Positions 862 to 11,242 of a stretch of 20,690 nucleotides of DNA are shown here, piece after piece; position 1 is the stretch's first letter; the number at the start of each line of letters is the position of its first letter. The notes beneath the pieces were generated by a model. The model was not told the origin of the DNA and searched no databases. It saw only the letters and a list, made by a program, of their open reading frames with translations. Position numbers and translations under genes: made by a program. Where the stretch lies: positions 1 to 20,690 of the forward strand of contig JBHLNT010000067.1 of NCBI GenBank assembly GCA_048941265.1. The letters run 5' to 3'. Source of the DNA: Promethearchaeota archaeon (GTDB taxonomy: Archaea; Asgardarchaeota; Lokiarchaeia; Sigyniarchaeales; SOKP01).

Positions 862-877
862 TACCCATAAATGGGTA
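862..877. promoter_or_regulatory. Palindromic operator, proximal copy (TACCCAT-AA-ATGGGTA)
   Basis: Perfect 7-bp inverted repeat lying between the TATA-like box and the ribB RBS (AGGAGA, 901..906). Confidence 0.8.
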
Positions 878-912
878 GATATAAAAAAATATTTATCAAA
901 AGGAGAAATTAC

Positions 913-1638
913 ATGAATGAAAATATGGAAAACGCAATTAAAGAATTATTTCTAGGAAAATTCGTTCTAGTATATGATGTTGATGGTCGAGAAGAAGAAG
1001 TAGATCTTGTGTGTTTAGCAGAGAAAGTAACTCCAAATCATGTTTATCAATTACGTAATGATGCTGGAGGATTAATATGTATAGCTATGCATGCTAAAAT
1101 CGCAGAGAAATTAGGGTTACCTTTCATGTTAGAGATTTATTCAAATGTATTAAGTCAATATTCAATTTTTAACAAAATTTCTCCCAATGTTGCATGTCCC
1201 TATGGGGATAAACCATCATTTTCAGTTACTATTAACCATGTTGATACATATACAGGAATCACTGATAATGATCGTAGTTTAACTATTAGAGAATTTGGAA
1301 TACTTGGATCTCAAATTTATCAAAACAGTTTAAAAAATGAATATCATAGAGATAAATTTGGAGAAAATTTTAGAGCTCCAGGACACACACATCTATTGAT
1401 AGCAAAAAAACAACTATTAAAAGAAAGATTAGGACATACTGAATTAACTGTAACATTGGCATTATTAGGTGGTCTTTCTCCAGTTTCAGTATTATGTGAA
1501 ATGTTGGATGGAACAACTGGTAAGGCACTTTCAATTAAAAAAGCAAGAGAATATGCCAAGAGAAATAATTTAGTGATGGTTGAGGGTAAAGAAATTGTAA
1601 AAGCTTTTGATGAATATCTTATAAAGGTGAAAAATTGA
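913..1638 (+). CDS. ribB: 3,4-dihydroxy-2-butanone 4-phosphate synthase
   Basis: Motifs VYDVDGREEEVD, DAGGLIC, TGITDNDRSLT, FRAPGH, GHTEL and LCEMLD. Start moved from 871 (that ATG is part of the operator) to ATG 913, which follows AGGAGA. Confidence 0.96.
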   Translation: MNENMENAIKELFLGKFVLVYDVDGREEEVDLVCLAEKVTPNHVYQLRNDAGGLICIAMHAKIAEKLGLPFMLEIYSNVLSQYSIFNKISPNVACPYGDKPSFSVTINHVDTYTGITDNDRSLTIREFGILGSQIYQNSLKNEYHRDKFGENFRAPGHTHLLIAKKQLLKERLGHTELTVTLALLGGLSPVSVLCEMLDGTTGKALSIKKAREYAKRNNLVMVEGKEIVKAFDEYLIKVKN

Positions 1639-2108
1639 GCAAAATAAATATTGGTATTGTAGATACAACTTTTGCGCGCATTGATATGGGACACATGGCA
1701 ATAAACGAAATTGAGAATGCAACAAGTAAAGTAAAGATCATTAGATATACTGTTCCAGGCATGAAAGACATACCCGTTGCATGCAAAATTCTTTTTGATC
1801 AACATGAATGTGAAATGTGCTTAGCTCTTGGAATGCCTGGCAAAGATGATAAAGATAAAATATGTGCTCACGAAGCAAACCAAGGTATTATTATGTGCCA
1901 GTTAATGACAGGAAAACATATTATTGAATGCTTTGTACATGAAGATGAAGCAAACACTCCAGATGAATTAATTAAAGTATGTGATAATAGAGTTAGAGAA
2001 CATGCTCAAAATATTTTAAAATTATTATTTGAAAAAGATTGGCTTGAGAAAAATGCGGGAATGGGGTTAAGACAAGGTTATCCCGATGTTGGGCCAATTA
2101 AATCCTAA
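1635..2108 (+). CDS. ribC: Archaeal riboflavin synthase (lumazine-synthase-like fold)
   Basis: Motifs [34 protein letters not shown] and GLRQG. TTG start overlaps the ribB stop, with an AAGGTGA RBS upstream. Confidence 0.96.
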
Positions 2109-2122
2109 TAGGGTGTATAAAA

Positions 2123-2554
2123 ATGAGTGAAAATAAAATTAATATTGGACTAGTTGTTGGAGAATTCCATTATGATATTACAGAAAACATGTTAAATAAA
2201 GCTGTAGAACATGCACAGTTTTTAGGATGTAATGTTGTGGAAGTTATTAAGGTGCCTGGTAGCTTTGATATGCCTTTAGCAATAAAAAATCTATTAAAAA
2301 AGGATAATATTGAAGGCGTTGTTTGTTTGGGAGCAGTAATTAAAGGAGATACTGATCATGATCAGATTGTTGCCCAACATGCAGCAAGAAAAATGGTAGA
2401 TTTATCATTAGATTTTAATAAACCTGTCTCTTTAGGTGTTTCAGGACCTGGAATGACTAGAGTTGAAGCGGTTGAGAGAATTGAGGATTTTGCTCGTCGT
2501 TCTGTAGAAAGTGTGGTTAAAATGGTAAGGAGAATACGAGATTCTAATAAATAG
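2123..2554 (+). CDS. ribH: 6,7-dimethyl-8-ribityllumazine synthase
   Basis: Motifs [29 protein letters not shown] and [11 protein letters not shown]. Confidence 0.97.
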
Positions 2555-2568
2555 TGAGGTTATTTTTT

Positions 2569-3324
2569 TTGATACAAATAACTTACATTCAAATTGACAA
2601 TTTCGGACCATTTACGGAAGAAATGGGTACTTACAGAGAGCATAAAATTCAAATTCTTCTCTCAGAGGTATTTATTTTCTTACAGAAATACTTTAATCGT
2701 TATGGAGGTCTTGTATTTTCTGCTTCAAAAGATAATATGATCGCTGTTTCAAATGGAATATCCATAAAACATCATCAATTTCTTATTAATAAATTAGAAA
2801 AAAAGTTTCCTATTACAGTCAGTATGGGAATTGGAACAGGAAATACTCCAATAAATGCACAAATTGAAGCATCGGAAGTATTAATTGCCAAAGGAAGTGC
2901 TCAATCTTCAAGAAAAAAAGTTTTAGCATATAATGGTCATAAATTACCAATAAAAAACAAAGTTAAAGTAGCTCATGTTGATATAAATTATTATACGAAA
3001 TTGGCTACAGATGTAAATCCATTCTATAAAAATTACGTTGATTTGAATAGGGGATATTTGACCTTAATGGAAAATTTTCAGAATATTGGTATACTTTGTT
3101 TTTTTAATGGAGGAGATAATTTTATTTGTGTTTGTCCTCTATCAATGGAACCTGATGAATTATTACCAACAATTAGATTATTTGAATTTAAACATAAACC
3201 ATGGAAGTTGAAAGTAGGGATTGGTGTTGGAAAAAATGTTTTAGAAGCAATATCTAAAGCAAATATTTGTTTAAAAGAAATAAGAGAGGGTCATAATTCA
3301 AAACAAATAAAGGTTTTAAATTAA
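2569..3324 (+). CDS. gch3: GTP cyclohydrolase III (IIa), ArfA
   Basis: Motifs IQIDNFGPFT, DNMIAV, GSAQ, AHVDIN, GGDNF and LKVGIG. Likely start is the in-frame TTG at 2569 (MIQIT...), with GTGAGGT (2554..2560) serving as RBS rather than as the start. Confidence 0.92.
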   Translation: MIQITYIQIDNFGPFTEEMGTYREHKIQILLSEVFIFLQKYFNRYGGLVFSASKDNMIAVSNGISIKHHQFLINKLEKKFPITVSMGIGTGNTPINAQIEASEVLIAKGSAQSSRKKVLAYNGHKLPIKNKVKVAHVDINYYTKLATDVNPFYKNYVDLNRGYLTLMENFQNIGILCFFNGGDNFICVCPLSMEPDELLPTIRLFEFKHKPWKLKVGIGVGKNVLEAISKANICLKEIREGHNSKQIKVLN

Positions 3325-3382
3325 CATTTTCTTATGATTCATACTTTTTTTTATTACAGACATTATAAATAATGATTATAAA

Positions 3383-4066
3383 ATGATTAATTTCGTTTTT
3401 ATACCGATTGGAAGTTATGAACAACATGGTCCTCATTTACCTCCTGAAACAGATTATTTGATTGCCAAAAGAATAGCAGAAAAAGTTGCTCCAGCATTTA
3501 AAGGTAAAATTATTGAGGGTATAAAGATCGGTATCTCTTCAGAACATGAAGAATTTATTAATACAAAATCAATTTCTAAGGTAGAATTTGAAAATCAAGT
3601 AAATAAACTTTTAAAAAATTTTTATGAAGAAACGAAGTTTTTTCTTATTAACGCTCATGGGGGAAACAATGATGCTTTATGTTCAATCAAAAGGCAATAT
3701 CAAGATAAACTTTTAGTCTTAAATACATTTTCTATAATTAAAAAAGACTTAATGAAAATAAGAACATCAAATATTGGTGGAATTTGTCATGCTGGAGAGT
3801 TTGAAACATCAATTATGATGTATCTATTTCCAAATAGTGTAAACATGATTGACCTCAAGAAAAGTGATATTAAATATGTTCCTTATCTTGATCCAAATTA
3901 TGAGTTCGAGAAACTAAAAAGATGGAAGACTAAAGATCTAAGTATCAGTGGGATATTAGGTGATCCATTTCACGCTTCAAGAGAAAAAGGAGAAATCTGG
4001 TTTAAATTATTAATTGAAAAAATAATCTCTTTAATTGAAGTATTTATTAATCAATATAAACTTTAA
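3383..4066 (+). CDS. arfB: Creatininase-family amidohydrolase, probably the FAPy deformylase ArfB
   Basis: Motifs GSYEQHGPHLP..TD, NAHGGN and HAGEFETS. It sits directly after gch3, whose product is the ArfB substrate; the specific function is inferred from context. Confidence 0.8.
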   Translation: MINFVFIPIGSYEQHGPHLPPETDYLIAKRIAEKVAPAFKGKIIEGIKIGISSEHEEFINTKSISKVEFENQVNKLLKNFYEETKFFLINAHGGNNDALCSIKRQYQDKLLVLNTFSIIKKDLMKIRTSNIGGICHAGEFETSIMMYLFPNSVNMIDLKKSDIKYVPYLDPNYEFEKLKRWKTKDLSISGILGDPFHASREKGEIWFKLLIEKIISLIEVFINQYKL

Positions 4067-4097
4067 ATGAATTATTTAGAATATTTCTAATTTTTTC

Positions 4098-4244
4098 TTA
4101 GAAAAAAGCATCCATTTTTTTAATACCTTTAATTTCATCAAATAAAATACCAAGGGCATCAAGAACCTGTTCTAAAGCAGATATAAGAAGTTCCTTATAC
4201 TTCTTAGAATCAATGTCTTGAAGTTTTGCGGGCTCGATTGTTTT
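4098..4244 (-). pseudogene. Displaced 3'-terminal fragment of a family B DNA polymerase gene (48 codons plus stop, no start)
   Basis: Translates KTIEPAKLQDIDSKKYKELLISALEQVLDALGILFDEIKGIKKMDAFF*. By hand, 24/38 residues are identical, ungapped, to PolB residues 953-990 (KAKELATLEDVDVKKYRELLQSALEQLMDALNISYDEI). Same strand as polB. Confidence 0.93.
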
Positions 4245-4248
4245 ATGA

Positions 4249-5049
4249 TTAGAATTCTGCTTTAAGTATATCTAGTTCGTTTTTATATTTCTTTACTCTT
4301 AAAGCACAATTTTTAGCGCCCAAATCATGTTTATGCGCACTTATCCATCCCCAGAACCTGGAAAAATCTAACTTTTTGTAATTTATCACTATTTCAGGAT
4401 GCACTTCTAAGGGGCTTAGAAATAAATCACCCCATACTTTCCAAAATACAGTAAATGCAAATTTTTTATATACTAAATTCTTGAAATGGTTAAAACAGTT
4501 TGGAAAAATTGCTTTGTATTGAGTGTCTATCTCAAAAATCACATTCATTATATTCTCTATACGTGGATATCTTTTCCTTATTTCCGAATCAACATCGCTG
4601 CATTTCGTAATATTGGGTATCAGTCCACAGGGAGATTTTCCCATAAACAAAAAATCCACATAAAGGGGATATGCCTTACATACTGAAGGTCGTAAAGAAT
4701 AGATGGAGCATTTTTTCTCTTGTAGATCATAAAAGATACACCATCCTTTTTTTGTTTTGATTTGATAGGTATGCACAAATTCATAGGGAAATGATTTAAG
4801 GAAATATGTTTCATAGGGAATAAATGACGGTTTCGATAGTTTATGGTTTGATTCGATAATCTTTTTTTCATCGTAGTGAACCGTGACCGATGTGGTGGGT
4901 GCTGTAGTGAACTTTCCTTTATAGTCATATTTATACAGTATTCCTTTTTTGTTGGCGTCGGTTATGTTCAACACTTTGCAGCATTTCCCGCACCGCTGGC
5001 AATGGAAAGTATATTCTTTTAAACTTAAAATATCTGGAATGAAGATCAC
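4249..5049 (-). CDS. YkgJ-family (CxxCxxCC) Zn/Fe-chelating cysteine-cluster protein
   Basis: N-terminal FHCQRCGKCC and central CIFYD..KKCSIYSLRPSVCKAYP. GTG start. Confidence 0.85.
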   Translation of the reverse strand: MIFIPDILSLKEYTFHCQRCGKCCKVLNITDANKKGILYKYDYKGKFTTAPTTSVTVHYDEKKIIESNHKLSKPSFIPYETYFLKSFPYEFVHTYQIKTKKGWCIFYDLQEKKCSIYSLRPSVCKAYPLYVDFLFMGKSPCGLIPNITKCSDVDSEIRKRYPRIENIMNVIFEIDTQYKAIFPNCFNHFKNLVYKKFAFTVFWKVWGDLFLSPLEVHPEIVINYKKLDFSRFWGWISAHKHDLGAKNCALRVKKYKNELDILKAEF

Positions 5050-5244
5050 TTGTAAATGAAGATAAAGATTCTAGAAACTTCAAAAAATGTAGTTCATCTT
5101 TATGGATTTAAAAGATAAGAGACCGTTAGTTTATACTCCATTAAGATGTTTTGAAGATTTTAAATAATAATTAGATTTGATAAATATTTATATAAAAGGG
5201 AATTTAGTGTATTTTATAGTTTCTTATATAAAGTATATGTTATA

Positions 5245-6684
5245 ATGACTAGGGAAAAAGAATTGTTTTGTTCTTCAAAAGGAAGGGGATCAGTTTATAA
5301 GTCATGCAATGCTTTAAATAAATTTAATCCCCCCAAAAAACCAGTATATTATTTAACAAGCGGTCTTGCTTTTGATGAGGAAATAATAGTCATTAATGAA
5401 AATAATTTAATTCATAAGGTTAAAATAGGGGATATAGAGGAATCATGGAGCAATTTAAGAATCTTAGTGATTAACAGAGAGGAAATGAATTTTGGACATA
5501 TTTATTTTCAACCAATTAGGAGATTTTCAAAAATATACGCTTCAGATTTGTTTAAAATAAGTCTAGCTGATGGAAGACAAATTATATGTGGTCCAAATCA
5601 AATCTTTCCTAAATTAGTACTACAAATTAACGTTAGAAGATATAATAATCCTGCAAATACGTGGTATATTGAGCATACTTTAGCTCATAATTTAAAAATA
5701 CGAGATAACCTTTTAGTCCTTCATAATATTCCTTTATCTTCAAATCCTCCAAAATGCATTTTTATTCCAAGTTTTCTTTATTGGGAGGACAAATGGATTG
5801 GAATAAAAAGGAATGAGTATGTAAAATTTTCTTATAGAAAAAATCAAAGAACTTCTGATCCTTTAATTAAACTAATTAATTCCAAATTTCAATATTCAAA
5901 GACGGCAAAAATGTATAGGGTAATCTGGGCAAATTTATCTAAAAATGAAAAAGATCTTATTGAAATTGAAGCAAAAAAAGGGCGTGTTGAAATTTTAATA
6001 AAAATTCATGGGAATGTAGGATTTTGGTATAACTCAGTATTCCCTCTAACAAATGACTTCTTTAAATATTTGGGTTGGTATACTGCAGAAGGGTCTTCAG
6101 ATAAAAATAGGATTACAATTACTCAATCAAAAGAACTTAAATTTGATAATTGGCAAGAAATTATTAATCTGCTCGATCAATTGAATTTTCCCTATACAGC
6201 AGATGAAAAAAAGACTATTAGGGTTAATTCAAATGTATTAACTTTGTTGACAATTCATCTATGCTCTACATTAGCCCAAAATAAGAAAATACCATTTGAA
6301 TTATTAACATATGACAGAGCTTACGCTTTTTTAAATTCTTATTACAAGGGTGATGGTGATTTATTACGTACCGGATTAAGGAAATTTACAACTGCTAGTC
6401 AACAATTAAAGAATGATCTAGTAAGTGTTCTAGGAGCAATCGGACAATTTTGCTCCATCCAGCATCCTAATTCATCCGACAATTGTTATCGAATAATCGA
6501 AACTGAAGGAAAACATTATAAAAGGAAATTCATGGGATTACTTCATTTCAACGGGATTACTCCAGTAAAAATTAAGTCAATTGAAAGAATTAGTTATAAT
6601 GATAATATCTTTAATATAATTACAGAAAATGGTTGGTTTGCCTCGACAAACGGAATACTTATTAGTGAAATTTCAAATTGCTGA
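5245..6684 (+). CDS. Free-standing intein-like protein: degenerate Hint domain plus a two-motif LAGLIDADG (DOD) homing endonuclease
   Basis: Block A-like GLAFDEEIIV, block B-like GRQIICGPNQIF, LAGLIDADG motifs YLGWYTAEG and FLNSYYKGDG, block D NKKIP, block H-like FTTASQQLKNDLVSVLGAIG, and blocks F/G VKIKSIERI..IFNI..NGILISEISNC*. No real exteins. Confidence 0.9.
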   Translation: MTREKELFCSSKGRGSVYKSCNALNKFNPPKKPVYYLTSGLAFDEEIIVINENNLIHKVKIGDIEESWSNLRILVINREEMNFGHIYFQPIRRFSKIYASDLFKISLADGRQIICGPNQIFPKLVLQINVRRYNNPANTWYIEHTLAHNLKIRDNLLVLHNIPLSSNPPKCIFIPSFLYWEDKWIGIKRNEYVKFSYRKNQRTSDPLIKLINSKFQYSKTAKMYRVIWANLSKNEKDLIEIEAKKGRVEILIKIHGNVGFWYNSVFPLTNDFFKYLGWYTAEGSSDKNRITITQSKELKFDNWQEIINLLDQLNFPYTADEKKTIRVNSNVLTLLTIHLCSTLAQNKKIPFELLTYDRAYAFLNSYYKGDGDLLRTGLRKFTTASQQLKNDLVSVLGAIGQFCSIQHPNSSDNCYRIIETEGKHYKRKFMGLLHFNGITPVKIKSIERISYNDNIFNIITENGWFASTNGILISEISNC

Positions 6685-6686
6685 AT

Positions 6687-9600
6687 TTAAAAAAAATCAT
6701 CAAAATCTTTAGTAACAGTCTTCTTTTCTTTTTTTTTTTCATATCTAAGTTGTAGAATTTCATCATAACTAATGTTTAATGCATCCATTAATTGTTCTAA
6801 TGCAGATTGCAGAAGTTCTCTATATTTTTTAACATCTACATCTTCAAGTGTTGCTAACTCCTTTGCTTTTGCTCCTAAACCATCCCTAATCTTAATTATA
6901 CTAATTGTTTCACCTTTTTGATATTCCTTTCCAGTTATTTTTTTCAATTCTTTTGCTACTCTAACATGCTGAGGAAGCACTTTATCATAAGAATTGAGTT
7001 TTTTTTGTAGAGTAATATTTATAGCATAGTCATCTAAATCGAAAGCATCTGGTTTCCCAATTTTTTTCCTATTTTCCTTTATAATCTCAATTATTGTTTC
7101 TCTTGCTTTTGAAAATTCCTCATCATTGGTTATTGTTTTTAATATTTCAATTAATTGATTAAAAACTTTTTTTATAAAGTCAGGAGTATTTTTCTTCTTC
7201 GCAACCAAACCCTTCATATCAATATATTTGGAATCCTTATAGATTCCTATATAATTCTTTTTTCTTTGGGAAAGTGCTAAAAATTGGTATATTTTTTCTT
7301 CTTCTAGATCAAGATCAAGCTCCTCTTTACTCCATTTAGAAAGTTTTTGCATTTGTGCCTGAGTAGGATTTGAGAGAAAAACACTATCTGTATCTCCATA
7401 TAGAACCTTTACACCAATCTCTTCTGATTTTTTGATTGTTTGCTTAATTGAATATTGCCCAATAGTAGTAGTACTTTCAGCAACAGGTAAACAAAACAAA
7501 GGGAAATTTAGTGAACCAAAAACTCCATAGCTTGAATTAATAAACACCTTTAGCGCTTGTTGAATGGTATAATAATAGCTCCGTTGCTTTTCTGATAAAT
7601 TTTTATCGCCTGATTTTGGCTTAAAATATTTCACTCTGATATCTCGGAAAAAACCGACTACATAGGCAAAGATGCCCATCTTATGAATGCATGTATGATA
7701 AGGGATAGCTTTTAAAATATTAGATTTACAGTCAGAATGAGGACATAAAACAGTTTCATATGAAAGATTATATTCTTTGATTATAGAGGGGTAAAGACTT
7801 GCGAAATCCATAACAACAACATTATAGTGAATCCCCTTTTTTGGCGATACAACATAAGCACCCTGAAAAGTCTTTCCCTCGATAATTGATTTAGAATATC
7901 CGCCTTCTTTCATCTCAGAAATTTCTGATCTCCTTGGGATAAGAAAATTTCTTCTACGATGTTCGAAGTAGAATATATTTTGTACCCATGTAGAAATTTG
8001 GCGACGCACCATTTCATGGATAGGTAATTTTGTCATTCGGCATAATAGGAGGATTAAATTCCAAACTAAAGAGTTATTAAACTGTGTTAATTCGAGAGTT
8101 AAAATAGAATCTTTTAAGTTATACCAAGATAGGATATTATATTCCATTTCATGGATTTCTTCTTCATGTTGATACTTCTCTTTTCCTAATAATGCATCGC
8201 TAATAGCATTTAGAGAACTACTCTCATAAGCCCCTCCGAATGCATAACCAGAAATACTTCTATTGAAGAAAAAGTTAAAGAGATCGATGTGAATTCCTTT
8301 CTTTAAATCACAGTCAGCTTTAGATAAGAATCCATAACCTCTCTTAACATGGATTGGATTAATATCTCTATGAATTCTTAATCTATCTGCTCTATGAGAC
8401 ATATAATTCAAATCAAAGTTATCCCCGTTAAATGTTATAACAATGGGATATTTCCACATGAGCCGAAATGTTTCAGTTAATAATACTTTTTCAGATTTAA
8501 AGAAGATAATTTCTGCATCAGATGGAAAATTTTTATGAAGATTCCCATATGTGAAACCTTCCCGTTCAAGAATATAGACTAATTTTAATCCGTCAGTTGC
8601 TACGAAAGATATACTAATAATTTCTTGTTTAGCTTCACGCGGATCTGGAATTCTGTAATCCTGCTGACCTAAATTAACTTCAATATCAATTGCGAGTCGC
8701 TTTAAATCAGGTATTGGAGTAAGAAAAATATCTAAGTATTTTTCAGAAAACTCTTGAATCTCATTGGATTCCTCTTTAAATAAATCTCGTAGTTCTTTTG
8801 CTATTTTTTTAGATTCTTCATCTGTCTTTTCGTAATTCATTTGAGTTATTCTGCCATTTTTTATGGAATAGATTAATCCTGGTATTAATTGTCTATCAAA
8901 AATATAATTCAAATGATATCTTATATCCGCCTCCCAAGCTTTTATTCCATTTTCTCCTAAAATGTTGCGAATATTAGTACCAGATCCTCCAATATTAGTA
9001 GGAGTTTTACCATAAATTTTTGTCATATCTATTTCTTTATCACTTAATAATTCTATTCGCTTAACTGGTTCAAACCTTTTAAATCCTTCATAATCCGTTA
9101 ATTTCTTAATATGCCTTGCTTCCCCAATTTTTTCTTGATAATTTAGTTTTTCTAAATCTTTTGTCGATTCTTTGCTTAAACAATAAGGCTCATGGTTTGT
9201 TGTATCAATCCAAATTTTTATCTCATCAGTTTCTAAATCATAAAATTTACAGTATGCTTTATTTTGAGTTCCATCATAATCAACATCAAGCAATAATCCT
9301 CTTTCTAAATTTTGAATAATTTCTCCCTTATTAATTAAATAACGGATATATGTTGATGTGACTGATTCTCTCGATATCTTTTCTAATTTAATATCTCCCT
9401 CTTTTAAACCGAATGGCTCGTTATTTCCTTTAAAAAATAGATCCTTAGGGATAGGAATTATCTCGGTTGGTGCCTTAATTTTTGCTTTTTTGAATTTTAT
9501 AATATCTTCTCCATATATTTGATCTTGAACAACTTCTACCTCTACTTCTTCCTCATCTTCAATTTCTTCCGGAATATCGAGTAATTCTTCTGCTTCCTCA

Positions 9601-9725
9601 TCTAAAATTTCTTCTTCATTTTCTTCTTCACTTATTTCTGATTTTGAAGAATCCACATATGAAAATAAGGACTTTTGTTTAAGATCTTCTTTTTTTTTCT
9701 TTTTTGGTTTTTTTTGAGGCGCCAC
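6687..9725 (-). CDS. polB1: Family B DNA polymerase, PolB1/Dpo1 type
   Basis: Exonuclease motifs AIDIEV, FNGDNFD and YNLKD. Polymerase motifs DFASLYPSII, KVFINSSYG, YGDTDS and KKNY. ISTWVQNIFYFEHRRRNFLIP resembles crenarchaeal Dpo1. No internal inteins. Confidence 0.97.
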   Translation of the reverse strand: MAPQKKPKKKKKEDLKQKSLFSYVDSSKSEISEEENEEEILDEEAEELLDIPEEIEDEEEVEVEVVQDQIYGEDIIKFKKAKIKAPTEIIPIPKDLFFKGNNEPFGLKEGDIKLEKISRESVTSTYIRYLINKGEIIQNLERGLLLDVDYDGTQNKAYCKFYDLETDEIKIWIDTTNHEPYCLSKESTKDLEKLNYQEKIGEARHIKKLTDYEGFKRFEPVKRIELLSDKEIDMTKIYGKTPTNIGGSGTNIRNILGENGIKAWEADIRYHLNYIFDRQLIPGLIYSIKNGRITQMNYEKTDEESKKIAKELRDLFKEESNEIQEFSEKYLDIFLTPIPDLKRLAIDIEVNLGQQDYRIPDPREAKQEIISISFVATDGLKLVYILEREGFTYGNLHKNFPSDAEIIFFKSEKVLLTETFRLMWKYPIVITFNGDNFDLNYMSHRADRLRIHRDINPIHVKRGYGFLSKADCDLKKGIHIDLFNFFFNRSISGYAFGGAYESSSLNAISDALLGKEKYQHEEEIHEMEYNILSWYNLKDSILTLELTQFNNSLVWNLILLLCRMTKLPIHEMVRRQISTWVQNIFYFEHRRRNFLIPRRSEISEMKEGGYSKSIIEGKTFQGAYVVSPKKGIHYNVVVMDFASLYPSIIKEYNLSYETVLCPHSDCKSNILKAIPYHTCIHKMGIFAYVVGFFRDIRVKYFKPKSGDKNLSEKQRSYYYTIQQALKVFINSSYGVFGSLNFPLFCLPVAESTTTIGQYSIKQTIKKSEEIGVKVLYGDTDSVFLSNPTQAQMQKLSKWSKEELDLDLEEEKIYQFLALSQRKKNYIGIYKDSKYIDMKGLVAKKKNTPDFIKKVFNQLIEILKTITNDEEFSKARETIIEIIKENRKKIGKPDAFDLDDYAINITLQKKLNSYDKVLPQHVRVAKELKKITGKEYQKGETISIIKIRDGLGAKAKELATLEDVDVKKYRELLQSALEQLMDALNISYDEILQLRYEKKKEKKTVTKDFDDFF

Positions 9726-9868
9726 TATAATAACCAGTAATTAATATTTAATTTAGTTTTTTCTAATAATAATTATTATAATTTCAATTATAATACCATC
9801 TATTACGAATTTAATATTTTAAAATCGTTATAAAGATTAAAAAAAATAGAGGATCATAAATTTTTTAT

Positions 9869-11242
9869 TTATTTTGTTCCGGTGGTCATTCTGATATCAC
9901 CTAAGAGCATATAAGGTGCAAATATTGTATTTCCACTTGAACTTAACCAGGTATTTACCTGCTTCAGCTCTCTCCCTAAAGCAAGAGTATTTTCAAGCAT
10001 ATGGAAATGATCAGAATTAATACGGAGCTCACGAACCGGTTCTAAAATGTTGCCTTTATCTTTCACCAAAAACATACCATCTTTAGGAAGAGATGATAAT
10101 GCGCCTGGAGGGGCATAACTTTGATAGCGAGTATACCACGTTGATGTAATTAATAACGTAGGCTTTTCGGAAATTTCCATCAATTCTTTTAAAGTATGAT
10201 CTCCGGTAGAAAATACGGTATTTGAGGGTTTAGGCATGGTTATTCCAGCATTTCCAGTAGATATTTCATCCTTCCGAGCAAGCGAGGTATTAGTAAAATA
10301 TTGTTTAATTACTCCCTTATCAATTAATAAAGTTTTTTGAGCTGGAACGAGCTCATCATCAAAAGGTGAAGAATCTAAACCATATTCCATAGTACTGTCG
10401 TCCCAAGCAGATATTTTTTCATCAGAAATCTTATCTCCTTCTTTTTTACCAACTAACCATGAAAGACCCATCTTTTTCACATAAGCATTTAATCCAATCG
10501 CAGGTGTGGGCGCTTGTAGCTCTGTCGACACTTTTGGATAAATGATTATATTGTAAATGCCGGGTTTTCCTTTTTTTCCTCCTATTGCTTGTTTACAGAT
10601 CATTCCCGCTTCTTCTCCTGCTTCAATTGGGTGAAATTTTTTGTCTAAATGTGTAGAACATGATAAAGCTTCTCCAGTGGCATACATATCTTCCGCAAAT
10701 GCTCTTATTCTGAAATTTAAATTAGTTCTTTTATAATTTCCCTTTAATCCCTTACTATTAATCAAATGAAATTGAGAATCTCCAAAGAAAAAAGACCCCG
10801 CAACTCTTTTAGCTCCTTGATTTAAACTTGCATTGGTTGCATCTTCGATTAAATCAATTGCTTTCTCACCTAAGTCAACAACTTTTCCATCGAAGATCTT
10901 ATTTTGAATACCATTGTTGTAGTTAAAAGGTCCATCTGGCAACCTTTTATAATTAGAATTTATCTTAGCGACATCTAATAGTCTTTCAATGTCTTTTAAA
11001 GTCTTTTCAATAGCTCCAGGTCGTAAATCGCTAATCATCATTTCTATGGTTCTCCTTTTTTTTGATAAAAACAAATTTAGCTTAATATCATCCCAATTCT
11101 TATTAATATCTACTTTGTTTTCAGAAAATCGTATCTGACTTTCATTTCGTATTATCCCCTTTATTGCCCATTCCGTACAAACCTGTTTTAAAATTTTTTT
11201 TGCCCTTTCCATTATTTCATTTAAAATTTCTAACTTATCCAT
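9869..11242 (-). CDS. pmbA: TldE/PmbA-family protein (non-catalytic partner)
   Basis: PFDDE..P..KT.LIDKGV and STGNAG motifs, no HExxH, directly downstream of tldD with a GAGGTGA RBS. Confidence 0.88.
   Translation of the reverse strand: MDKLEILNEIMERAKKILKQVCTEWAIKGIIRNESQIRFSENKVDINKNWDDIKLNLFLSKKRRTIEMMISDLRPGAIEKTLKDIERLLDVAKINSNYKRLPDGPFNYNNGIQNKIFDGKVVDLGEKAIDLIEDATNASLNQGAKRVAGSFFFGDSQFHLINSKGLKGNYKRTNLNFRIRAFAEDMYATGEALSCSTHLDKKFHPIEAGEEAGMICKQAIGGKKGKPGIYNIIIYPKVSTELQAPTPAIGLNAYVKKMGLSWLVGKKEGDKISDEKISAWDDSTMEYGLDSSPFDDELVPAQKTLLIDKGVIKQYFTNTSLARKDEISTGNAGITMPKPSNTVFSTGDHTLKELMEISEKPTLLITSTWYTRYQSYAPPGALSSLPKDGMFLVKDKGNILEPVRELRINSDHFHMLENTLALGRELKQVNTWLSSSGNTIFAPYMLLGDIRMTTGTK

Follow-up and report, generated by a model that had tools for sequence, protein, structure and literature searches.

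A displaced polB tail and a free-standing, intein-derived endonuclease point to a 3'-end-replacing homing element in Asgard archaea

We analysed a window of 20,690 nucleotides (the whole stretch of contig JBHLNT010000067.1 presented above) from a Promethearchaeota archaeon. Its genome is called G000 here, and the other G numbers denote related genomes of the same order, of which 41 and then 154 were searched and their loci extracted. In this window, the gene of a family-B DNA polymerase (polB) is followed by an endonuclease gene, a cargo gene and a second, startless copy of the polB 3' end, which lies about 2.6 kb from the one in use. The most probable explanation, to which we give a probability of about 0.82, is that the 3' part of polB was invaded by a homing element, which pushed the native 48-codon end of the gene 2.6 kb downstream. 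This explanation draws on the homology and the polarity of the two tails, on the recurrence of the arrangement in relatives, on the intein ancestry of the endonuclease and on the phylogenetic discordance between the 5' and 3' parts of polB. From these observations we infer cleavage, a target site, a direction of transfer and homing. More generally, the data support a 3'-end-replacing homing element of archaeal polB that arose from the gene's own intein, recurs across two genera and has a distant counterpart in a second family. The following features carry the argument.

4098..4244, minus strand: orphan native PolB C-terminus, 48 codons plus stop, startless, with the N-type ending ...EIKGIKKMDAFF
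4249..5049, minus strand: cargo gene with a CxxCxxCC putative Zn/Fe-chelating domain (PF03692, E 3.5e-11), 266 amino acids
5245..6684, plus strand: intein-derived LAGLIDADG homing endonuclease gene, free-standing, 479 amino acids, convergent on polB
6687..9725, minus strand: working family-B DNA polymerase gene, 1012 amino acids (Pfam: DNA_pol_B 6e-50, exonuclease domain 1.4e-24)
6687..7217, minus strand: replacement polB 3' segment, D1-type, about 175 codons with an approximate upstream limit, ending ...DEILQLRYEKKKEKKTVTKDFDDFF

An orphan copy of the native polB end

The minus-strand translation of 4274..4098 reads IYLKQNSNHKTIEPAKLQDIDSKKYKELLISALEQVLDALGILFDEIKGIKKMDAFF between two stops. 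The frame is limited by a TAG at 4274..4272 upstream and a stop at 4100..4098, and 48 sense codons run from position 4244. No ATG, GTG or TTG lies between the TAG and the part homologous to PolB, the sole start codon in the orphan being the ATG of ...KKMDAFF, and the orphan is missing from the list of open reading frames (ORFs) because no start codon precedes the homologous part. The length of the frame, the upstream TAG and the lack of a start codon before the homologous part had been pointed out in a first-pass annotation of the sequence, together with the freedom of the frame from stops and frameshifts, and they were borne out by translation; the orphan has neither indels nor stops. The proposed identity to the in-use tail was also reproduced. 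Over the 38 codons in question (6869..6756 on the minus strand of the in-use tail), 24 residues are identical, 16 of them with the same codon and eight with a different one, and all six synonymous codon pairs named in advance (GAT/GAC, AAA/AAG, CTG/CTT, GCA/GCT, CAA/CAG and TTA/CTT) are present. The nucleotide identity over the same 38 codons is 78/114, and BLASTP against the last 87 residues of the 1012-residue PolB gives 25/47 identities with an E value of 2e-14. A whole-genome search of the 5.0-Mb assembly identified the orphan as the only extra copy of a PolB tail. Pfam gave zero matches for the 57-residue piece containing the orphan, and the homology comes from sequence searches against PolB tails. 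The arrangement is not an assembly artefact: the orphan-cargo and endonuclease-polB junctions are spanned without differences by contigs of three public runs from two studies, one of these runs possibly being the window's own source.

The polarity of the two tails is given by the relatives. The in-use tail ends in ...DEILQLRYEKKKEKKTVTKDFDDFF where native tails have ...EIKGIKKMDAFF. All 14 of the endonuclease-free in-use tails listed are of the native type, with the exact ending ...KKMDAFF before the stop in ten of these and the consensus ...ALEQVLDALGI(S/T)(F/Y)(E/D)EIKGIKKMDAFF apart from minor variants. With regard to the question of which tail is shared with endonuclease-free relatives, the answer is the orphan and not the in-use tail: the orphan shares 44/48 residues with the working tail of G001 and 43/48 with that of G008, and it matches the native tail at 124/144 nucleotides, against 78/114 for the in-use tail. 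As the orphan is of the native type and the in-use tail is not, the orphan is the displaced native end of this lineage, which used to form the 3' end of polB, and it is the in-use end that arrived later, as judged from sequence comparison.

The first-pass annotation had further taken the different codons to mean that both tails diverged while functional in separate lineages and were brought together recently, rather than arising by local duplication and decay, and had named a ratio of nonsynonymous to synonymous rates (dN/dS) near 1, or best matches to non-polymerase proteins, as signs of the opposite. Over the 38 codons, the two tails of the window show a dN of 0.305, a dS of 1.06 and a dN/dS of 0.29, which is not near 1 and suggests divergence under protein-level constraint. 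The orphan matches PolB tails exclusively, by BLASTP, genome-wide and in the searches of relatives. The separate origins of the tails are equally apparent from the tail tree described below (support 95/88).

Local duplication, in which the polB 3' end would have been copied in place with one copy drifting, would agree with two homologous tails on the same strand, 2.6 kb apart, and with three radical-looking substitutions private to the orphan (A>T, L>P and S>L). However, the dS of 1.06 between the tails is far above the 0.24-0.47 obtained for flanking genes of this genome and its sister species, and the tails therefore separated before those species did and are not local duplicates. For these flanks, the values of GCH3 for G000-G003 and of o871 for G000-G001 are recomputed ones, and o871 and GCH3 of G003-G001 are left out. 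The orphan is also closer to the working tails of other species (44/48) than to the neighbouring copy (24/38), the in-use tail groups with tails of other genera, and the same arrangement, with different junctions, is found in five other genomes. We give local duplication hardly any weight.

The claim that the tails were brought together recently holds in relative terms. Only four synonymous and three nonsynonymous changes are private to the orphan, compared with five synonymous and no nonsynonymous changes private to the working tail of G001. These few private changes and the lack of indels and stops indicate a displacement that is young relative to the terminal branch. The three nonsynonymous changes may be a mild sign of relaxed constraint. 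Between the orphan and the working tail of G001, we counted 15.5 synonymous and 4.5 nonsynonymous differences (dN/dS 0.044).

A free-standing endonuclease with intein ancestry

The intein origin of the endonuclease and the recurrence of the arrangement as a mobile element in relatives go beyond the first-pass annotation. The stop codons of the endonuclease gene and polB are 2 nucleotides apart. In Pfam, the 479-residue protein shows weak matches to Intein_splicing and LAGLIDADG_3, the latter just below the cut-off (22.3 versus 22.5 bits), and no other domains. Its best solved relative is PI-PkoII (PDB 2cw7), the endonuclease of a Thermococcus PolB intein (E 4e-9). The in-frame PolB inteins of G038, G142, G150 and G011 are 43-48% identical to it over the whole Hint and endonuclease length, and its LAGLIDADG blocks, ...LGWYTAEGS... 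and ...YYKGDGDL..., can be aligned with their counterparts in genuine inteins. The acidic residues of both blocks are presumably catalytic.

None of the usual marks of an intein (in-frame insertion, a nucleophile at residue 1, a terminal Asn) is found in the window copy. It has its own start, a leader of about 55 residues and a position on the strand opposite to polB; it carries a Gly at the Cys1 position and has lost the terminal His-Asn, ending in ...LISEISNC where inteins end in ...VVHN before the Ser. The protein is an escaped PolB intein, which is unable to splice because of the Cys1 to Gly change and the loss of His-Asn.

Homologues of the endonuclease (E <= 1e-10) were detected in 10 of the 154 genomes. 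Four carry it as an in-frame intein (G038, G142, G150 and G011), inserted in polB between KVFING and (S/C)YGVFGS, with the intein itself running from the Cys to ...VVHN. In the other six (G000, G003, G072, G061, G106 and G034), it belongs to a gene of its own that follows polB directly, in convergent orientation. Cys1 is lost in 6/6 free-standing copies, being replaced by Gly in five and by Pro in G034; the terminal Asn is lost in 5/6, and an N-terminal leader has been added in all. The five copies from the family of this archaeon (f1) form a clade with a support of 100/99, in which those of G000 and G003 are sisters (99/97). The dN/dS of the endonuclease between G000 and G003 is 0.37, which fits a working protein under weaker constraint than the host genes.

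Two of these copies have additional features. The endonuclease of G072 (locus L057, 6341-8398) bears an N-terminal extension of about 240 residues with two CxxC pairs, which is zinc-ribbon-like and reminiscent of the zinc-finger fusion in yeast WHO and HO proteins. In G034 (locus L060, 985-7610), the homologue is the C-terminal part of an ORF of 1020 residues, convergent just behind the polB stop, and the PolB of G034 has, at the same motif-B site, a mini-intein that consists of Hint ends and lacks an endonuclease domain. This arrangement could reflect trans-mobilisation or a stage on the way from intein to escaped endonuclease.

A chimeric polB

The working polB is chimeric, combining a body typical of its lineage with a 3' segment of foreign origin. 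In the cassette-bearing genomes (n=7), amino acid identity to element-free relatives is 80-100% along the body and drops to 45-75% about 150-180 codons before the stop, where the proportion of nonsynonymous differences (pN) rises from at most 0.12 to 0.20-0.30. This step is absent from the controls. The longest orphan, with 146 codons, extends roughly to it.

The two parts of the gene also differ in phylogeny. In the tree of the upstream 180 codons, sequences group by genus, and G000 is found with G001 and G003 (90/81). Tails in the tree built from the last 150 codons cluster according to cassette type: G000 is placed with G116, G072, G061, G056 and G104 in the group named D1 (95/88), while G003 is placed with G106 in the group named D2 (100/99), and both groups cross genus lines. 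Within D1, the tails of G056 and G104 group with those of the endonuclease-bearing G072 and G061 (100/99). The orphans are placed among the native tails, that of G000 pairing with the working tail of G008 (86/79). D1 tails have a Lys-rich insert, and D2 tails read ...IDI.S.ET..F...DGF. before the stop. By sliding identity, no sampled lineage was clearly closest to the G000 tail over residues 850-967, and its placement in D1 comes from the extreme tail and the tree alone.

D1-like tails, with the Lys-rich insert followed by ...KKLDAFF at the stop, also occur in G116 (locus L071), G142 (locus L062) and other genomes of genus g2 that have no free-standing endonuclease; G142 is one of the genomes with an in-frame intein. 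The D1 replacement tail may have come from genus g2.

Recurrence, empty sites and decay

Among the 154 genomes, six have a verified orphan tail and six a free-standing endonuclease. The orphans measure 48, 60, 94, 106 (plus 42 in another frame), 119 and at least 89 codons. Most of the 17 genomes with two PolB-tail matches (G018, G024, G032, G034, G044, G048, G050, G055, G057, G115, G133, G134, G144, G145, G147, G148 and G153) fall outside this count, and in several of them the two matches look like the parts of a single tail interrupted by a small insertion. In G018, an open 86-codon fragment of a native-type PolB tail lies at the end of a contig (locus L067, G018:C84, 4551-4808), and the complete polB ends at the start of another contig; the fragment may be a further orphan or reflect an assembly break at a repeat.

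G003, from the same genus, has the orphan, the CxxC gene, the endonuclease and a polB with a divergent tail in exactly the order of the window. In G072 and G106, from another genus, polB is followed by the endonuclease, other or no cargo, and the orphan. In G056 and G104, it is followed by two ORFs of unknown function and the orphan. G008 represents the empty site: its neighbour genes are the same, and about 50 bp separate the end of its polB from the creatininase-family gene. In G001 (locus L035, 7680-7823), an 88-nucleotide remnant of the endonuclease is accompanied by a 42-nucleotide relic of the tail reading FDAIKGIRKMDVYLN; this relic has lost its stop, and each of its changes is nonsynonymous. 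The search for an orphan covered 7 kb beyond the endonuclease of G061 and 3.2 kb beyond the endonuclease-containing ORF of G034 and was negative in both. The orphans beside an intact endonuclease are open in 4/4 cases, and those without an endonuclease carry stops, one in G056 and three in G104. The series from intact to decaying to relic looks like the cycle of invasion, decay and loss of homing endonucleases.

The orphan itself is most likely a young, untranslated relic that serves as the downstream homology arm of the element. Translation under selection, for instance through a +1 frameshift at the end of the cargo ORF that would add a PolB-type PCNA-binding tail, could account for the low dN/dS between the orphans of G000 and G003 (0.06, from 14 synonymous and 5 nonsynonymous differences), although the adjoining endonucleases have diverged like the host flanks. 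It is also compatible with the orphan lying, in both genomes, in the +1 frame of the cargo ORF, with its open frame extending across the cargo stop. Against this stand the lack of a start codon, the absence of a shared slippery motif in overlap windows of 7-9 codons that differ between G000 and G003, and the position of L>P and S>L at residues conserved in working tails. The orphan of G072 follows a divergently oriented endonuclease and that of G106 lies about 380 nucleotides from the nearest ORF, so a cargo-orphan fusion cannot be general. The orphans of G056, G104 and G001 are decaying. Translation of the orphan is therefore considered very unlikely, and we take it to be silent.

The cassettes without an endonuclease match in G056 and G104 raise another explanation, in which the endonuclease is a bystander and the polB 3' end a hotspot of recombination, either illegitimate or through an integrase that escaped notice, in which the tail is duplicated incidentally. 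The variable cargo, including four extra ORFs in G106, would agree with this. Nevertheless, the endonuclease is found directly behind the polB stop in five genomes of family f1, its homologue is found likewise in a sixth from another family, and the remnant in G001 occupies the same place. Furthermore, purifying selection acts on the endonuclease, which has retained the two catalytic blocks, and no integrase or transposase domain was detected among the cargo ORFs scanned in Pfam. As the tails of G056 and G104 are of the D1 type of G072 and G061, loss of the endonuclease is the simplest explanation for these two genomes. A bystander role is thus unlikely.

With regard to the content of these cassettes, loci L065 (G056, 4823-6956) and L066 (G104, 3234-5367) hold the same pair of ORFs, of 373 and 336 amino acids, closely similar by eye and located between the D1-type tail and the decaying orphan; Pfam and PADLOC gave only marginal matches (BrxF-like, E 1.3e-3). 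The four extra ORFs of G106 (locus L059, 2970-6891; 286, 404, 445 and 147 amino acids) lie between the endonuclease and the orphan, and weak PADLOC matches (DarG-like, 1.7e-5; AbiEi-like, 2.9e-3) hint at defence or toxin-antitoxin genes.

Proposed mechanism and points against it

In the proposed mechanism, which is drawn by analogy with the yeast WHO elements described below, the element would consist of some 150-180 replacement codons for the polB 3' end, including a divergent tail, the free-standing LAGLIDADG endonuclease and, in this lineage, the CxxCxxCC cargo. The endonuclease would cut an element-free polB in a conserved region about 150-180 codons before the stop, and the break would be repaired from an element-bearing chromosome. 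One broken end would pair in the polB body, and the other, which is the recipient's own tail, would pair with the orphan of the donor. The recipient would thereby gain a resistant 3' end, the endonuclease and the cargo, and its own tail would turn into the new orphan.

Several observations weigh against this mechanism or complicate it. The start of the foreign segment rests on amino acid divergence, polB synonymous sites being near saturation: the proportion of synonymous differences (pS) along polB was near saturation in most pairs, and a hint of a step, about 180 codons from the stop, was seen for G072 versus G083 only. G056 and G104 have replaced tails and orphans without an endonuclease match, and another agent could be able to create such insertions. 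The relic of G001 sits behind an in-use tail of the native type and is not simply derivable from a G003-like order. The joint expected for an element-free allele was not found in contigs of four runs, although contigs drop rare variants. The grouping of the D1 and D2 tails disagrees with the endonuclease tree, since the endonucleases of G000 and G003 are sisters and their replacement tails differ (D1 versus D2); tails and endonucleases appear to have been reshuffled beyond what the simple model predicts. Finally, the dS of the endonuclease between G000 and G003 (0.37) is like that of the host flanks (0.24-0.44), and the cargo-orphan junctions of the two genomes can be aligned with gaps of 36 and 3 nucleotides, which would fit one old insertion. 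After a single old insertion, the orphans would be expected to drift apart neutrally, which they have not done, and intact orphans would then require repeated refreshment by homing or selection. A model of the WHO type, as described below for yeasts, would resolve this puzzle, with the junction inherited with the element and the orphan renewed at each homing.

A more far-reaching form of this proposal is that the element is an active, independently evolved Asgard counterpart of WHO near its origin, in which a polB intein moved out of frame, became a free-standing endonuclease and now spreads by replacing the last 150-180 codons of the polymerase with a resistant counterpart. In this view, the orphan would be a required and renewed homology arm; an arms race would be visible in the switch of Ile837 to Met or Lys and in the alternative PCNA-binding tails D1 and D2; and cargo would be carried between genera. 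We consider this form tentative, and somewhat more apt to fail than to hold in full.

Candidate target sites

Two positions in polB are of interest as possible targets.

7215..7217, minus strand: codon of Met837, at the Ile position of the motif Y-x-D-[I]-K-G; candidate for a resistance substitution, and marker of the target region
7533..7535, minus strand: Ser731, the residue just before the ancestral intein insertion point (in intein-bearing relatives KVFIN-G, then the intein C...HN, then S-YGVFGS); there is no intein in this polB

The motif Y-x-D-I-K-G is located about 165 codons before the native stop, at the identity step. Its Ile is replaced by Met or Lys in 7/7 cassette-bearing genomes versus 1/22 others (one Met), a count that excludes 15 genomes without a match to the pattern. 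The residue before the ancestral intein site (731/732) is Ser or Ala rather than Gly in 5/5 family-f1 genomes with a free-standing endonuclease, versus 6/20 without, three genomes without a pattern match and two intein-bearing ones being set aside. As the genomes are related, both counts are leads and not statistics. The second count is suggestive of an endonuclease that still targets the ancestral intein site, but we rank this site below the YxDIKG region because the segment that was replaced seems to begin some 100 codons downstream of it. The endonuclease would cut the element-free allele and spare the resident one, and the residue at YxDIKG is associated with the presence of the cassette.

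Comparison with known mobile elements

The closest known counterparts are the WHO elements of Torulaspora and Lachancea yeasts, which are non-splicing, intein-like endonucleases located downstream of FBA1 (Coughlan et al. 2020, PMC7282813). According to that article, WHO integration replaces the 3' end of FBA1, old 3' fragments beyond the endonuclease gene act as a homology arm, and the loci show discordant FBA1 5' and 3' trees as well as intact genes, pseudogenes and decaying fragments. A preprint terms WHO elements a rare third category of homing element, and the word 'archaea' is absent from its text (Osborne et al. 2026, 10.64898/2026.08.13.744650).

The window element is like WHO in having a non-splicing, intein-like LAGLIDADG endonuclease immediately downstream of a conserved housekeeping gene, a divergent 3' allele that replaces the end of the host gene, the previous 3' end beyond the endonuclease, 5'/3' discordance, and a presence that is polymorphic among relatives (the empty site of G008, the relic of G001, the decayed copies). 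In contrast to WHO, the host gene is polB and not FBA1, the host is an archaeon and not a yeast, and the endonuclease comes from the host gene's own intein, grouping with Asgard PolB inteins and not with WHO, HO or VDE. The window copy also lacks the zinc-finger fusion, is convergent to its host gene and has extra cargo, and no tandem clusters were seen. By its Pfam domains and nearest relatives, the element would be a WHO analogue and not a member of the WHO/HO family.

Mobile ORFs with C-terminal duplication are also known from mitochondria, in atp6 of Allomyces macrogynus and in atp6, atp9, cox2 and nad3 of Glomus, where the native C-terminus of Glomus has 91% nucleotide identity to relatives and 63.5% to the inserted copy (PMC3630166). 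They likewise combine an endonuclease ORF with a foreign C-terminus, the native C-terminus lying downstream and being closest to relatives. However, they are fungal and mitochondrial, are often in frame with the host gene and encode endonucleases without intein ancestry (PMC3630166), whereas the window element is chromosomal, in a 5.0-Mb archaeal assembly, and on the opposite strand. From what these sources describe, WHO is closer to the window element than the mitochondrial ORFs are. PolB inteins (PI-PkoII and those of G038, G142 and G150) share Hint and endonuclease homology and the same LAGLIDADG blocks with the window copy, but the latter lies outside the host protein, with its own start, a leader and no splicing residues. 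The seg and mob genes of T4-like phages resemble it as free-standing endonuclease genes beside a target gene with co-conversion of flanks; in the available parts of the sources, these elements are inserted between genes, displace no gene end and encode GIY-YIG and HNH enzymes (PMC2790892, PMC2988022).

In the literature searched, we found no archaeal or bacterial case of such a 3'-end-replacing element; the strategy is known from a few yeast genera, with the fungal mitochondrial counterpart. If our explanation is correct, the strategy evolved more than once. The relatives would then form a natural series from in-frame intein to mini-intein with a neighbouring endonuclease, free-standing endonuclease, relic and empty site, and this series would cover the step from intein to free-standing endonuclease, as invoked for the origin of yeast HO. 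It would also explain the mosaic, discordant end of a replicative polymerase in this group, including its presumed PCNA-binding tail, and the polB 3' end would be a landing site for accessory genes. The mosaicism of polB matters for the use of PolB as a marker. In addition, new LAGLIDADG enzymes with a guessable target are on offer.

Cargo, junction and neighbouring genes

The remaining features of the locus are the following.

5050..5244, no strand: AT-rich spacer (20% GC) between the divergently oriented cargo and endonuclease genes
4245..4258, minus strand: cargo-orphan junction, about 14 nucleotides, including the last two codons and the stop of the cargo gene
3383..4066, plus strand: creatininase-family gene, 32 bp from the end of the orphan

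Among the 41 genomes, the cargo gene has a full-length match between G000 and G003 only, with 78% identity and a dN/dS of 0.175; other genomes gave partial stretches with at most 49% identity. The spacer presumably holds the promoters of the two divergent genes. A scan based on a bacterial consensus, applied here to an archaeal host, found fewer promoter-like sites than in shuffled sequences and 0 terminators. Only four bases separate the cargo stop from the start of the orphan, and the junction may be further degenerate sequence derived from polB, its homology being weak.

In G003 (locus L034, 3533-4897) and G001 (locus L035, 5965-7377), a gene for a transporter-like membrane protein of 454-470 amino acids separates the creatininase-family gene from polB or the orphan; it is missing there in G000 and G008. 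With regard to the flanks, dS between G000 and G001 ranges from 0.85 to more than 2 in polB and its upstream neighbour (6687-11242), compared with 0.34-0.47 at 871-4066. The higher dS on the polB side of the cassette is also observed against G003 and G008; the sequences flanking the insertion site to its left and right seem to differ in their history.

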